From a virus (lineage: Duplodnaviria; Heunggongvirae; Uroviricota; Caudoviricetes), in IMG/VR virus record IMGVR_UViG_2690316273_000014: a stretch of 10,824 nucleotides of DNA. One strand, given 5' to 3'. Positions 1 through 10,456 of this stretch are shown here, piece by piece. The translations under genes and the position numbers were made by a program. Numbering within the stretch: position 1 is the first letter of the stretch; each line of letters starts with the position of its first letter. The notes beneath the pieces are model-generated. The model searched no databases. It was not told the origin of the DNA and was given only the letters and a program-made list of their open reading frames with translations.

Positions 1-1284
1 CTACTTCTTCGCCTCTGCAACCACTTTGCTACCCACGCCGCGGTTATTGTATTCCCACATGCGGTTGTAGTTAGTGTCATTCAGATTGCGCTGTACTTCG
101 TCGTTATCATCAACGCTGCCGGTGTTACCCGCAAACGGACGATTAGAGATCACCGCATCAGCCCACGGTTTGGCTGTGTTAAAACCTTCGTTGATGGCGC
201 TATCACGGATCACTACCTGACCGTTGGTATTGGCATCAACATCCAGCGAGCGGCCCAGTTGCGCCACGCCATCACCGGAAGCATTGAAACGGCTGTTTAC
301 GGCGAGGAAACCGTAGTAAATGTTGGACAGCGTAGCCGGTGCAAACACATACGCTTCTTGCTGGGTACGGGAGTTCACCACGCGGAATTCGGTGTTATCG
401 AACACCACTGCGCCGCGACCAGAAACGATATCCACATCCCCTTCAATATAGCTGTTGGTCACCAGCGTACGCGGCTGGCGATTCGTTTCCAGACGGTTCT
501 GCACACCGCTGTTGGTGACAAAGAAGGTGTTCTGACGACCGAGAATGTTGACGTTATTGATCTGCACTTTGTCGCCATCAGTACGCAGTGCCACCGCCGG
601 ATGGTTACCCGCATCTACGCTATCGCCCAGCGTGTTTTCGATGGTCAGGTTTTGCAGTTGCAGGCCATTGTTTTGTGACCAGAAGACCGCAGAGCAGAGA
701 ACACCGATACTGTCGCTGCGTTTACTCTGGCAGCTATCGTACATATACCACGCCGGTTTACCTGGCATATATTTGCCGCGCGGGTTGACGTCGTGACGCC
801 AGTCGGCAGGGCTCATGCCACCATCAAGGGAAAGCCCAATCTTCACATCAATCGGTTTTTCACCTGTACCGTACAGAGTAATTCCACCCGGAGCGGCAGG
901 GACATACACCGTTCCCTGATACTCACCAGGCATCACGGCAATATACTGGCGCTTGTTGGTACGCTTGATAATTGCCGCATCTACCGCCGCCTGAATCGTG
1001 GTATGCGTTACACCTTGAGTACCCGCCGGGCCGACAACAAAGTCAGGTTGCGCAGGCAGGGTAATCGGGGAAGGATTCCACGCTGCCGCACCTGGTGTCA
1101 GGGATGCAAAATAGTGTTGAGCATCGAAATTCTGCGCTTCTTTTGCCGACAGAATCGGGCGAGAAGAGGTACCAGGCGCGGTTTGATCAGAAGGACGTTG
1201 ATCGGGCGGTGTTGAGCTACAGGCGGTCAGCGTCACGCCAAAAGCCAATGCCAGCGCCAGACGGGAAACTGAAAATGTGTTCAC
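1..1284 (-). CDS. ybhC: Host outer-membrane lipoprotein YbhC (pectinesterase-like / acyl-CoA thioesterase family), complete
   Basis: Complete 427-aa ORF with stop at 1..3. N-terminus MNTFSVSRLALALAFGVTLTAC looks like a lipoprotein signal with lipobox cysteine. Recognised from memory as E. coli YbhC, the gene on the gal side of lambda attB; no search run. Confidence 0.85.
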   Translation of the reverse strand: MNTFSVSRLALALAFGVTLTACSSTPPDQRPSDQTAPGTSSRPILSAKEAQNFDAQHYFASLTPGAAAWNPSPITLPAQPDFVVGPAGTQGVTHTTIQAAVDAAIIKRTNKRQYIAVMPGEYQGTVYVPAAPGGITLYGTGEKPIDVKIGLSLDGGMSPADWRHDVNPRGKYMPGKPAWYMYDSCQSKRSDSIGVLCSAVFWSQNNGLQLQNLTIENTLGDSVDAGNHPAVALRTDGDKVQINNVNILGRQNTFFVTNSGVQNRLETNRQPRTLVTNSYIEGDVDIVSGRGAVVFDNTEFRVVNSRTQQEAYVFAPATLSNIYYGFLAVNSRFNASGDGVAQLGRSLDVDANTNGQVVIRDSAINEGFNTAKPWADAVISNRPFAGNTGSVDDNDEVQRNLNDTNYNRMWEYNNRGVGSKVVAEAKK

Positions 1285-2892: not shown

Positions 2893-3134
2893 TTATCATC
2901 TCCATAAAACAAAACCCGCCGTAGCGAGTTCAGATAAAAGAAATCCTCGTCAGTGCGAGGATGCTGTTCATTGCTGCTATACACTTTTTTGCTCTCAACG
3001 TAAGCGGTAGCTCATTCTGTTGGGTTGGTGCAGTTGCTTTTAGGAAATGCTATTTACCCCTTAAACGTCGGCTGAAAGAGCTAAAATCCATGCAAAAAAT
3101 TTACGCAATTTTGTGTATTATTGTGCAGTAAGTA

Positions 3135-3737
3135 ATGAGCTATTTTCTGCGCAAAAAATGGATGGTAAATTTGTCCGGGGCAGGAAAAATTTTATGGGCG
3201 CTAAACATGAAAAAAGATTTGTATCCTTATTTGATTTGCATGACAGTTTCAGGCCTGATCTTTATTTTCTTTTTCTTCTGGTGGCGGGCAGATATTTACA
3301 GGGTCACGTTTCTTAATCAGAGTATATCCCACTATTACATTCTGTTTAGCATGGGAATAGCTTTTCTGTTATCTCTGTTTTGGGTTAAGAAGGGGATAGT
3401 AAAACAAAGCGGCTGGAAGAGTCTGTCAGCATACCTTAAGGTTTATGCAGGGATGTGCATATTTGCTGGATTTTTTCTGATTATACCCCTTACAACACTA
3501 ACTTATTTTTTGCCTGGAGAGACATCGTCTTATGTTGCACCGTATCGGTATACTTCCGGTAGTTCAAAAAGTTGTTCTGGAGCTGAGGTGGATGACCCCG
3601 ATCTACATGAGAATATTCGCATTTGCTATCCGTATGGCAATTATGAGTACGATAATATTATCTATGTTGAAAAGAAAATTAATACATTAGGTGCGGTAGT
3701 AACATATGCACAGACCGCGCGTGATGATACTGAATGA
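3135..3737 (+). CDS. Hypothetical integral membrane protein (about 3 predicted TM helices plus C-terminal soluble tail); opposite-strand accessory gene in the ea/b region
   Basis: 200-aa ORF on the strand opposite to all neighbouring early genes. Hydrophobic stretches LICMTVSGLIFIFFFFWW, YYILFSMGIAFLLSLFWV and VYAGMCIFAGFFLIIPLTTLTYFL. Region is visibly AT-rich. Start is uncertain: ATG at 3135, 3162 or 3207, none with a strong Shine-Dalgarno. Possible promoter elements TTTACG/TATTAT near 3101..3125 are weak. No lambda gene is recalled here. Confidence 0.5.
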   Translation: MSYFLRKKWMVNLSGAGKILWALNMKKDLYPYLICMTVSGLIFIFFFFWWRADIYRVTFLNQSISHYYILFSMGIAFLLSLFWVKKGIVKQSGWKSLSAYLKVYAGMCIFAGFFLIIPLTTLTYFLPGETSSYVAPYRYTSGSSKSCSGAEVDDPDLHENIRICYPYGNYEYDNIIYVEKKINTLGAVVTYAQTARDDTE

Positions 3738-3771
3738 GATAGTATATAGCGGGCAAGTTTTAGTTAATTTA

Positions 3772-3803
3772 TCGAGGTAATATAATTTACCTCGACTCGT
3801 TTA
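3772..3803 (+). terminator. Candidate intrinsic terminator downstream of the + strand membrane ORF
   Basis: Perfect 9-bp inverted repeat TCGAGGTAA (3772..3780) / TTACCTCGA (3787..3795) with loop TATAAT, followed by T-rich CTCGTTTATTCTGG. The T tract is interrupted and the stem is AT-rich, so strength is uncertain. Confidence 0.4.
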
Positions 3804-3947
3804 TTCTGGTATTAATATTTCGCTTTACGATCGATTTTTATCTGATGATATTATGCGGTTTTCATATACTGACTTACTGTCTTTTCTCCGTTAGCGATTT
3901 TCTCCTGCTCAGCGATGATTTTATCTTTGGCTTCTAGTTAATTTCGC

Positions 3948-4169
3948 TCACTTCGAACCTCTCTGTTTACTGATAAGTTCCAGATCCTCCTGGCAACTTG
4001 CACAAGTCCGACAACCCTGAACGGCCAGGCGTCTTCGCTCATCTATGGGATCGCCACACTCACAACAATGAGTGGCAGATATAGCCTGGTGGTTCAGGCG
4101 GCGTATTTTTATTGCTGTGTTGCGCTGTAATTCTTCAATTTCTGATGCTGAATCAATGATGTCTGCCAT
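3948..4169 (-). CDS. DksA/TraR-family C4-type zinc-finger protein (phage TraR-like), 73 aa
   Basis: MADIIDSASEIEELQRNTAIKIRRLNHQAISATHCCECGDPIDERRRLAVQGCRTCASCQEDLELISKQRGSK has a CxxC-(x17)-CxxC arrangement and a size typical of TraR-like proteins. GGAAG sits 4 nt upstream of the ATG. Confidence 0.75.
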   Translation of the reverse strand: MADIIDSASEIEELQRNTAIKIRRLNHQAISATHCCECGDPIDERRRLAVQGCRTCASCQEDLELISKQRGSK

Positions 4170-6788: not shown

Positions 6789-6921
6789 TTTTTGGGACTC
6801 CTGGCTGATTAAGTATGTCGATAAGGCGTTTCCATCCGTCACGTAATTTACGGGTGATTCGTTCAAGTAAAGATTCGGAAGGGCAGCCAGCAACAGGCCA
6901 CCCTGCAATGGCATATTGCAT
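6778..6921 (-). CDS. cIII: CIII (FtsH inhibitor) with altered C-terminus, 47 aa
   Basis: Hand translation from ATG at 6921: [47 protein letters not shown]-stop. First 46 residues match lambda CIII as recalled (54 aa), including the amphipathic core. AAGGAG Shine-Dalgarno upstream. Confidence 0.85.
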
Positions 6922-6993
6922 GGTGTGCTCCTTATTTATACATAACGAAAAACGCCTCGAGTGAAGCGTAATTGGTATGCGGTAACGCCGCGC

Positions 6994-7362
6994 TCAGGCG
7001 GCCTTGATAGTCATATCATCTGAATCAAATATTTCTGATGTATCGATATCGGTAATTCTTATTCCTTCACTACCATCCATTGGAGGCCATCCTTCCTGAC
7101 CATTTCCATCATTCCAGTCGAACTCACACACAACACCATATGCATTTAAGTCGCTTGAAATTGCTATAAGCAGAGCATGTTGCGCCAGCATGATTAATAC
7201 AGCATTTAATACAGAGCCGTGTTTATTGAGTCGGTATTCAGAGTCTGACCAGAAATTATTAATCTGGTGAAGTTTTTCCTCTGTCATTACGTCATGGTCG
7301 ATTTCAATTTCTATTGATGCTTTCCAGTCGTAATCAATGATGTATTTTTTGATGTTTGACAT
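6994..7362 (-). CDS. ea10: Ea10-like early protein, 122 aa
   Basis: 122-aa acidic ORF MSNIKKYIIDYDWKASIEIEIDHDVMTEEKLHQINNFWSD... between cIII and the N-proximal cargo, the position and size of lambda ea10. GAGGA Shine-Dalgarno before the ATG. Identity recalled with moderate certainty. Confidence 0.6.
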   Translation of the reverse strand: MSNIKKYIIDYDWKASIEIEIDHDVMTEEKLHQINNFWSDSEYRLNKHGSVLNAVLIMLAQHALLIAISSDLNAYGVVCEFDWNDGNGQEGWPPMDGSEGIRITDIDTSEIFDSDDMTIKAA

Positions 7363-7550: not shown

Positions 7551-8432
7551 TTATGACCACTTTTTGTTTGGGTTTCGTTGGTGAGCGTGGTTTACAGGAT
7601 TATTTGATATACCCCATAACTCTGACTCGCTTATCTCTACACGAGAGAAAGACCTGCTTTCTTTCAGTTCTTTTATAAACCTAGAACCTAAGATGACATC
7701 TATTGTACCAGAAAGTTCTTGTAAAAGATCTTTGTTTTTTCTGAGGAAGAAAATATCTTCTTTATATTTAATTTTTACATAGAATTTATTCTGTATTTTT
7801 AATATATCAAAGCATGGCAGATATCTATATCCCTCATATTTTCGCCACTGCTTAACAATTATAACATCTTTTTCATTTACTGCATTAATCAGCCCAAGAC
7901 CAAGTACAGGTATGAATATTCTATTGTCTGCCGAAAGCGTACAATTATCACCACCAGGCAAATATGTATAAATCATGTCGGAATTTTTATACGCATCAAC
8001 GAATGCACGTAAGAAGCGTACATATTTTTGCCATCCGTTTATACCGAATTTACCATATAAGTATTCTTTATTTGTTAGAAGAAAACTATTTGTATCAGGA
8101 TCCTTATCTACAGACCTGTCGATAAGATCTCCAACTACGTTTACAAAGTCAAAGACAGAGTTTAATAAGAACAATTGTCTTTCAGTAGGGCGAATTTCAA
8201 TTATGTAGCCAGGATGAAGACGATATTGCATCTGCTTACGAAGTATACCGAACGCTTGGGTCCGAGCATCTGAAAGCAACTTCTTGTCGCCATCGCCGTG
8301 AGCATTGTTTCTAATAAAACTGATATAATTTGCTAATTTTTCAGCCTCTTTTTTGTGTTTTTTTCGCTCTGATGCTGAGTCTATTGGTTTTGGTATGGAC
8401 TTGTAATCAATCTTCTTCATTACGTACCTCAT
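7551..8432 (-). CDS. Hypothetical 293-aa protein occupying the sieB/ral slot directly downstream of N; candidate superinfection-exclusion / abortive-infection / anti-restriction cargo
   Basis: Long uninterrupted ORF whose ATG (8432..8430) overlaps the N stop codon (8431..8429) as ATGA. Markedly AT-rich and lysine-rich, unlike the flanking lambda-like genes. No similarity to lambda SieB or Ral recognised and no motif confidently identified. Followed by a short hairpin plus T-rich tract at 7520..7549. Confidence 0.75.
   Translation of the reverse strand: MRYVMKKIDYKSIPKPIDSASERKKHKKEAEKLANYISFIRNNAHGDGDKKLLSDARTQAFGILRKQMQYRLHPGYIIEIRPTERQLFLLNSVFDFVNVVGDLIDRSVDKDPDTNSFLLTNKEYLYGKFGINGWQKYVRFLRAFVDAYKNSDMIYTYLPGGDNCTLSADNRIFIPVLGLGLINAVNEKDVIIVKQWRKYEGYRYLPCFDILKIQNKFYVKIKYKEDIFFLRKNKDLLQELSGTIDVILGSRFIKELKESRSFSRVEISESELWGISNNPVNHAHQRNPNKKWS

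Positions 8433-9103: not shown

Positions 9104-10456
<1,353 letters not shown>

Follow-up and report, generated by a model that had tools for sequence, protein, structure and literature searches.

A single-gene moron cassette of phage 434, shared with P2-like prophages, and its possible role in superinfection exclusion

The window considered here is a stretch of 10,824 nucleotides (IMG/VR virus record IMGVR_UViG_2690316273_000014) in which a lambdoid prophage of 434 type, integrated at the lambda attachment site, is represented by its left arm. Sequence comparison identifies positions 3090-3800 as a single-gene moron cassette, composed of a leader, a gene for a 176-residue protein, and a weak candidate hairpin terminator, that is oriented against the direction of pL transcription. 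On one side of the cassette, the list of open reading frames (ORFs) gives ybhC followed by int, xis, and an orf55-like gene, all of them leftward. On the other side lies a gene for a TraR/DksA zinc-finger protein, followed by exo, bet, gam, kil/cIII, N, and then 434 cI and cro. Pfam and PHROGs support the TraR-like gene and further early genes, and Rfam places the lambda cIII thermoregulator at 6876-6934.

The opposite-strand gene is, by its sequence, a phage 434 gene. Window positions 2900-3950 share 99.6% DNA identity with both complete phage 434 records, 99.7% with phage 2B8, and 98.6% with mEp332, and these are the only phages that have the gene among 50,697 phage records. In other lambdoid phages the common sequence is limited to window positions 2900-2988. 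The full stretch is found in 905 of 5,426 complete Escherichia coli genomes, including O157:H7 (at the CP-933K site beside ybhC) and O104:H4.

An earlier note on this DNA, made from the letters alone, had described a rightward ORF of 200 codons in an AT-rich block with no leftward ORF of 60 aa or more. The ORF is present mechanically on the plus strand (3135..3737), the minus strand is without an ORF of at least 40 aa between 2985 and 3947 (and without one of more than 30 aa inside the cassette), and the GC content is 0.33-0.41 over 3000-3900 versus 0.44-0.55 in the flanks. The rightward gene is real but shorter than had been proposed, since its coding sequence is 3207..3737 and its product has 176 residues. 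Lengths of 169-180 aa are seen in the divergent homologues (43-77% identity) of Salmonella, Klebsiella, Enterobacter, and Cedecea, all of which start at the residue that corresponds to M25 of the 200-aa ORF, with a nearly invariant N-terminus (MKK.SYP.L in alignment A1). The 24-codon extension is absent from every divergent homologue, and the frame upstream of the conserved ATG is open for just 1-10 codons in seven other genomic contexts. The 96%-identical allele L021 (E. coli ECCNB20-2) has two in-frame stops within the 72-nt extension, the second of which also excludes the starts at ATG 3162 and TTG 3171 chosen for the 434-type allele in other gene calls. RefSeq gives 176 aa for the 96%-identical allele WP_000711110.1, and the AlphaFold2 predicted local distance difference test (pLDDT) score falls below 50 solely for residues 1-24 of the 200-aa ORF. 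The Nei-Gojobori ratio of non-synonymous to synonymous change (dN/dS) is 0.08-0.16 in all unsaturated comparisons, which cover five sequence classes and homologues that are 57-98% identical; between the alleles of the window and L021 (98% identical) it is 0.08, with 7 synonymous and 2 non-synonymous changes. By these sequence measures the gene 3207..3737 is certainly real and under strong purifying selection.

Existing annotations of the gene conflict. RefSeq gives it 200 or 176 aa, the CPT record of phage 434 gives 188 aa from a TTG plus a separate ORF of 56 aa, and phage 2B8 is annotated with fragments only; in phage 434 the product is called hypothetical or a putative membrane protein. The 56-aa ORF (2961..3131), judged by its sequence context, is probably not a gene. 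The 'ORF-22+' of 1991 (M60848) uses another frame from ATG 3194 and is not backed by codon-level conservation.

The protein is predicted to have three transmembrane (TM) segments, as the earlier note had suggested from the translation. AlphaFold2 places them at residues 29-53, 62-85, and 94-125 (200-aa numbering is used for all features of the model), and hydropathy agrees. The model also has one short strand between TM1 and TM2 and, at the C-terminus, a five-strand beta-domain of about 70 aa (129-195); its mean pLDDT is 81.7, and a model of the domain by itself has 87.9. Among 19 members of the family the mean net charge is +1.3 for the N-terminus, +0.3 for loop 1, +2.8 for loop 2, and -1.3 for the C-terminal domain, and all 19 have exactly two cysteines in that domain. 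A cytoplasmic N-terminus and a periplasmic location of loop 1 and the C-terminal domain are predicted, and a disulfide between the two invariant cysteines is likely. The core of the beta-domain has a mean pairwise identity of 66% with 21 of 67 positions invariant, including SCSGA.V and I.ICYP.G.Y, while the segment TM2-loop2-TM3 is the least conserved (32-37% identity, 1 of 62 positions invariant). This pattern would suit TM helices that serve as an anchor for a periplasmic module in which the activity resides.

Homology and structure searches, which the earlier note had proposed, returned 71 homologues and no relative with a known function. The family is small and uncharacterised. It comprises 61 clusters at 50% identity among 1.84e9 representative proteins, with an identical architecture in all of them and no informative fusions. 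No family of Pfam, NCBIfam, or PADLOC (PADLOC-DB 2.0) matches the protein, the cut-off for Pfam and PADLOC being E <= 0.1. The sole PHROG match is phrog_1416, a family of 90 aa with no assigned function that covers the C-terminal 88 residues; it models just the C-terminal 90 residues of the family, probably because truncated gene calls are so common. A sequence search of the PDB gave nothing below E = 0.59, and the structure search gave no fold relative; the top of the fold search with the domain consists of small envelope-anchored beta-barrels (DUF1093, SlyB, BcR97A, and YhhM). An identity as an immunity protein against a pore-forming colicin (inner-membrane proteins with 3-4 TM segments) was considered and rejected, as no colicin-immunity family of Pfam matched at E <= 0.1. 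To our knowledge, such immunity proteins are without a periplasmic beta-domain.

Among 80 loci of the family on viral contigs, 65 are lambdoid (64 with the near-clonal 434-type allele and one with a 47% variant). Another 14, which fall into four sequence classes (78, ~69, 67, and 52%), lie in the gpQ-gpA slot of P2-like phages, and the remaining locus belongs to neither setting. The lambdoid copies are almost clonal (97-99% identity). Variants with 77% (E. coli) and 69% and 57% (Salmonella) identity lie in P2-like prophages between the portal gene gpQ and gpA, a replication gene. The phage-borne copies that diverge most, two in number (44-47%), are located beside an integrase gene, with a HipA-like kinase or a protein with an HNH domain encoded nearby. 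The interval from gpQ to gpA corresponds to the old/tin locus, which is documented as a hotspot of anti-phage systems (Rousset et al. 2022, PMC9122126). Entry #4 in Table S5B of that study, which carries the label '3 TM', has no Pfam match and is present at 470 of 18,150 E. coli loci, is 52% identical to the window protein over 163 residues (E = 1e-55), and the allele WP_000711113, of the type found in the E. coli P2-like prophage L017, is in the study's locus list. Entry #4 belongs to the same family and shares its length and its three TM helices; it differs in being carried by P2-like prophages rather than a 434-type lambdoid prophage, and it appears to have been catalogued only.

The gene is also found in decayed prophages. 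At the CP-933K site of E. coli O157:H7 PA20 (L003) it is intact inside a prophage in which int is frameshifted, bet is truncated and fused straight to ninE/ninF/ninG, and N, cI, cro, O, and P are gone. In the dsdC-torI region of E. coli (L021 and L024) the 96%-identical allele is intact in a KplE1/CPS-53-like remnant, where its neighbours are a dead IS4 transposase gene and a dead YqaJ-type recombinase gene; there too the gene outlives its prophage. Several Salmonella P2-like prophages carry two small co-oriented ORFs (81 and 119 aa, without Pfam matches) between the portal gene and the cassette (L005 5284-5888 and L018 5227-5831). These are absent from L006 and L017 and have the look of a separate cargo unit.

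The edges of the cassette were defined by comparison with the P2-borne copies. Homology between the window and L017, whose protein is 77% identical, is continuous over 3070-3844 with patches to 3039 and 3937. The leader (117 nt 5' of the ATG) is 79% identical to that of L017 and 62% identical to that of a Salmonella P2-borne copy, whereas four-fold degenerate sites of the coding sequence in the same pairs are 46% and 30% identical; upstream of 3090, identity drops to 39-50%. This indicates that the leader is constrained non-coding DNA and that 3090 is the 5' edge of the unit. The claim of the earlier note that this is a self-contained unit on the opposite strand is borne out by its recurrence in P2-like prophages together with the constrained leader (about 117 nt) and part of the trailer. 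The stretch 3000..3140, in which the earlier note had proposed to map the promoter, overlaps the conserved promoter-candidate region, but only in part, as that region is 3090-3206.

The sequence TG[G/A]TAA[A/T]TT, an extended -10-like element, lies 44-47 nt 5' of the ATG in each of the prophage-borne variants that were examined. L018 and L020, of the 57% Salmonella class, keep it too, though their leaders are otherwise unalignable. The motif alone (TGnTAAWTT) is not rare, with 4 matches versus 1.4 expected, and a generic sigma-70 promoter scan found nothing upstream of the gene. A promoter of the cassette's own is predicted from the positional conservation of this element. Its predicted transcription start is near 3178, which is 3' of the start codons at 3135, 3162, and 3171, so that only ATG 3207 would be usable. 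Upstream of the element are three direct repeats, candidate sites for a regulator, that are retained in P2-borne cassettes, with a clean deletion of one unit in the Salmonella copy L005. The repeats overlap a 'CII box' (TTGY-N6-TTGY, 3111-3124) marked in the CPT record of phage 434. This box was not accepted as evidence, since the pattern is not enriched in the window (6 matches versus 2.9 expected) and the half-sites are TTGT, not TTGC. Rfam has no RNA family in the cassette. Strand-specific RNA-seq of strain EDL933 has been published (PMC4048457).

Past the stop codon, the hairpin with a perfect 9-bp stem that had been reported is present, with arms (3772-3780 and 3787-3795) that are 100% complementary around a 6-nt loop. 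The 78-nt trailer folds better than shuffled sequences (z = -2.25 on the plus strand and -3.4 on the minus strand), and the tail of the hairpin, CTCGTTTATT, is a poor U-tract. The hairpin is kept in close alleles only, being degenerate in L017 and absent from the Salmonella cassettes; in L021 an A-to-G change at stem position 4 retains a G.U pair in the plus-strand RNA. The sequence thus makes the hairpin a weak terminator candidate, not a feature of the family.

Between the hairpin and the TraR/DksA gene, the minus strand of 3857-3941 reads LEAKDKIIAEQEKIANGEK... and resembles LETKDNRIAELEKIATDY, which is part of an ead/Ea22-like pseudogene, disrupted by a frameshift, next to the cassette in the P2-like prophage L023. 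Positions 3894-3937 are 77% identical to L017 (blastn, E = 4e-4). This segment is a probable relic of an ead/Ea22-like gene; the cassette protein itself has no Pfam match and is not Ea22-like. The presence of the relic in both phage types indicates that the cassette and a piece of an Ea22-like gene moved between them. Lambda has ea8.5 and ea22 in the same slot, between xis/orf55 and the orf61-orf63-orf60a-exo block, and the replacement of ea22 asserted in the earlier note is essentially correct. In lambda the two genes belong to the pL operon, run leftward, and encode soluble proteins, unlike the rightward membrane-protein cassette and probable relic found here.

Features of the cassette and its surroundings in the window (positions from the first nucleotide of the window)
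Feature	Position	Strand	Basis or remark
ybhC	1..1284	-	ORF list
Leftward terminator hairpins, tL4 of phage 434	2912..2962	-	Sites 2962-2943 and 2931-2912; t-L4 of M60848
56-aa ORF, 'putative membrane protein' in one 434 record	2961..3131	+	Straddles the mosaic junction; probably not a gene
Constrained leader, candidate promoter and 5' untranslated region	3090..3206	+	Conserved above neutral sites
Three 10-bp-phased direct repeats, consensus ATTGTGCA[A/G]	3099..3128	+	Candidate regulator sites
Spurious 24-codon N-terminal extension, in fact non-coding leader	3135..3206	+	Stops; absent from homologues; low pLDDT
Extended -10-like element TGGTAAATT	3163..3171	+	Position kept in prophage-borne variants
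Coding sequence, 176-aa predicted inner-membrane protein (MKKDLYPYL...DDTE)	3207..3737	+	Start conserved in homologues; dN/dS; RefSeq; AlphaFold2
9-bp stem, weak candidate intrinsic terminator	3772..3795	+	35 nt past the stop codon; flagged terminator-like
Probable ead/Ea22-like relic, 28 codons, LEAKDKIIAEQEKIANGEKTVSQYMKTA*	3857..3941	-	Resembles Ea22-like pseudogene
TraR/DksA zinc-finger gene	3948..4169		Next gene after the cassette, counted from the orf55-like side; ORF list

The cassette has two of the properties used to recognize morons (PMC3594210). Its GC content is deviant, as the gene has 38.4% GC versus 48.5% and 50.1% in its flanks, and the same is true in P2 contexts (38-43% in the gene versus 52-56% in the flanks). 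It is also an obvious addition, present in some phages and missing from close relatives such as lambda, which has ea8.5 and ea22. Sequence comparison further identifies the cassette as mobile between lambda-like and P2-like prophages.

We tentatively propose, with somewhat less than even confidence, that the moron encodes an envelope-level superinfection-exclusion (Sie) protein, a role made plausible by the locations of its homologues. In a lysogen, where pL is repressed, the cassette would be transcribed from its own candidate promoter; from the architecture only, we infer that expression is independent of pL. In the lytic cycle, pL transcripts that converge on the cassette would traverse it in the antisense direction, since tL4 lies just beyond it. 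The TM helices would anchor the protein, and the five-strand barrel would be displayed in the periplasm together with the TM1-TM2 loop. This module could bind DNA-delivery parts of an incoming phage (tape-measure, tail-tip, or ejection proteins) or the host entry site, and the entry of competing genomes would be blocked without killing of the cell, an exclusion like that by HK97 gp15 or P22 SieA but by an unrelated protein. The entry of DNA from phage 434, like that from lambda, depends on ManYZ (PMC6832061). The fuller form of this proposal is a little more doubtful. It holds that the protein is the founding member of a family of envelope-level exclusion proteins in which a disulfide-bonded, periplasmic OB-like barrel on three TM helices intercepts the phage DNA-delivery machinery, and that a promoter-bearing cassette for it is traded between lambdoid and P2-like prophages. 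The family reaches from phage 434 through about one sixth of complete E. coli genomes to the fourth most abundant cargo of the P2 hotspot.

Two known exclusion proteins resemble that of the cassette in organization. HK97 gp15 is an inner-membrane Sie moron protein whose homologues are mostly chromosomal genes of Enterobacteriaceae outside prophages (PMC3594210). Like the window protein, it is encoded by one small gene of deviant GC content in a lambdoid prophage; the gp15 gene has its own expression signals and the cassette has candidate ones, and both families have chromosomal homologues outside prophages. The two differ in that gp15 is YebO-like and the window protein, with no Pfam family at E <= 0.1, has no sequence relation to it. 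In addition, gp15 is a small protein encoded in the tail operon (PMC3594210), whereas the window protein has three TM segments and a periplasmic beta-barrel of 70 aa and is encoded in the early-left ea region or, for its homologues, in the P2 gpQ-gpA slot. Exclusion by gp15 has been demonstrated and that by the window protein is predicted. P22 SieA is a prophage-expressed protein of 162-164 aa with three predicted TM segments that is located exclusively in the inner membrane and blocks DNA injection (PMC10883804); its gene has its own promoter and is opposed to the neighbouring genes (PMC10883804 and the P22 record). It is nearly equal to the window protein in size and number of TM segments, and membership of its family implies that specific phages are kept from injecting their DNA by way of their ejection proteins. 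In SieA, TM1 and TM2 are separated by a long soluble stretch and a C-terminal domain is almost lacking, whereas the window protein has three closely spaced TM segments followed by a conserved C-terminal domain. Homology between the two was rejected (hhalign of alignment A1 with P22 SieA, probability 0.2%; BLASTP, E = 12); of the three sequence types of SieA (A-C), the direct comparison did not cover B and C, though the protein matches no PHROG with an annotated function.

Several observations weigh against superinfection exclusion. The protein matches nothing in PADLOC, Pfam, or NCBIfam and no functionally annotated PHROG, and its promoter and transcript are predicted, as are its topology and its disulfide. 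We know of no exclusion phenotype beyond immunity that has been ascribed to this region of phage 434. The hotspot position holds for the homologues and not for the window copy, and the sequence of entry #4 is not in the table of cloned systems of Rousset et al. The most abundant cargo of the hotspot is the ParM/StbB plasmid-stability genes (Table S5B), and location there alone is thus not proof of an anti-phage role. In Klebsiella and Enterobacter, lone copies whose GC content is host-like (52-55%) have ordinary genes as neighbours, and further lone copies are found on Pantoea megaplasmids and a Serratia plasmid, which suggests that the ancestral role of the family may be unrelated to phages. 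Gene calls are often truncated to 81-112 aa, one form of 112 aa being present on at least 1,000 contigs, so that decay of copies may be frequent; the truncated calls of the P2-type allele (P0086, P0088, and P0093, with 112 and 81 aa) may be disrupted genes or artefacts of gene calling.

The same lone copies, in non-prophage chromosomal sites and on Pantoea megaplasmids, would fit a lysogenic-conversion gene without a role in phage defence, whose periplasmic domain protects or modifies the host envelope, for example as an orphan immunity protein against a bacteriocin, a type VI secretion toxin, or a contact-dependent inhibition toxin, by conferring stress tolerance, or by benefiting the lysogen as lambda Bor and Lom do. 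The top barrels of the fold search, being envelope proteins of mostly undefined function, also fit such a gene, as does the periplasmic domain with its two invariant cysteines, which resembles many periplasmic immunity proteins. This alternative is somewhat less probable than exclusion. Pfam detects neither a colicin-immunity nor any other immunity family, the phage-borne copies are concentrated in slots that are documented or typical for anti-phage cargo, and HK97 gp15 illustrates that chromosomal homologues are compatible with a Sie role. A hitch-hiking remnant with no current function in 434-type prophages would fit the common truncated copies, and the lambdoid copies are so nearly clonal that by themselves they tell little about selection. 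The low dN/dS (0.08 between the window and L021 and 0.08-0.16 across classes), the constrained leader, and the reading frame that is intact in at least five independent contexts make a functionless remnant highly improbable.

Two further alternatives have a low probability. The protein could be, as in the second option of the earlier note, an abortive-infection effector whose three TM helices permeabilise the inner membrane on sensing infection, so that the cell dies before phage release. Effectors that consist of TM segments only are frequent in defence systems and are thought to work via cell suicide (PMC9122126), and a single-gene cassette in defence hotspots would suit them. However, TM2-loop2-TM3 is the least conserved part of the protein and the periplasmic domain the most conserved, there is neither a sensor domain nor a partner gene (the neighbours differ in every context), and carriage in the 905 E. 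coli genomes is stable, apparently with the gene's own promoter. On this sequence evidence an abortive-infection effector seems less likely than an envelope-level exclusion protein. The gene might instead serve the phage's own life cycle, for instance through a CII-activated rightward transcript at the establishment of lysogeny that, by an antisense effect or through its product, modulates the pL operon or the phage's own DNA entry or exit. The CII-box-like sequence and the convergence of the gene on the pL operon, which makes transcriptional interference possible, speak for such a role. The CII pattern is, however, unenriched with its TTGT half-sites, the true pI and pRE boxes lie elsewhere, and the repeats are also kept in P2-like prophages, which have no CII. 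Since the gene is present in 434, 2B8, and mEp332 only among isolated phages, it is dispensable for lambdoid growth, and purifying selection acts on the protein, not merely on transcription. Envelope-level exclusion is the reading that we favour over these alternatives.

Other parts of the window also contain genes of interest. In a very AT-rich block (GC 0.30-0.35) directly following N, at the place of ral and sieB in lambda, is an ORF of 293 aa (7551-8432, minus strand). The final 20 residues of this ORF match the C-terminal end of the Nun termination factor of HK022 (phrog_5632, E = 7e-5) and the rest matches phrog_12139, which has no assigned function; the CPT record of phage 434 calls it 'Nun C-terminal peptide-containing protein'. 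From its sequence, this ORF may be a second moron-like unit, possibly encoding a transcription-directed exclusion factor. Directly downstream of 434 cI, in the rexAB slot of lambda, is an ORF (9104-9580, minus strand) whose N-terminal part is hydrophobic (phrog_2651). Under the name Hex, the 434 record describes it as a 'repressor protection protein' that shields the repressor from RecA-dependent proteolysis, and it corrects a start codon assigned earlier; in its mechanical form of 158 aa the ORF runs into the end of cI. A DUF2528 protein of 122 aa (6994-7362, minus strand; PF10800, E = 2e-47) lies where the 434 record annotates an Ea10-like single-stranded-DNA-binding protein.

The gene has been visible in phage 434 as hypothetical since 1991, and its family has been counted in the P2 hotspot and never named. 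The analysis yields a corrected gene model, a connection of the 434 gene with the abundant '3 TM' hotspot entry, and an exclusion hypothesis that lends itself to a direct test. The correction (176 aa, not 200 or 188, with a probably spurious 56-aa ORF upstream) concerns many database records. If the function is not related to phages, the cassette would be an ordinary lysogenic-conversion moron. If it is exclusion, the protein would represent a structurally new and very common single-gene exclusion family, the abundant P2 hotspot entry and the unnamed 434 gene would have a function, and phage susceptibility as well as the host range in phage therapy could be affected in the E. coli strains that carry the gene.

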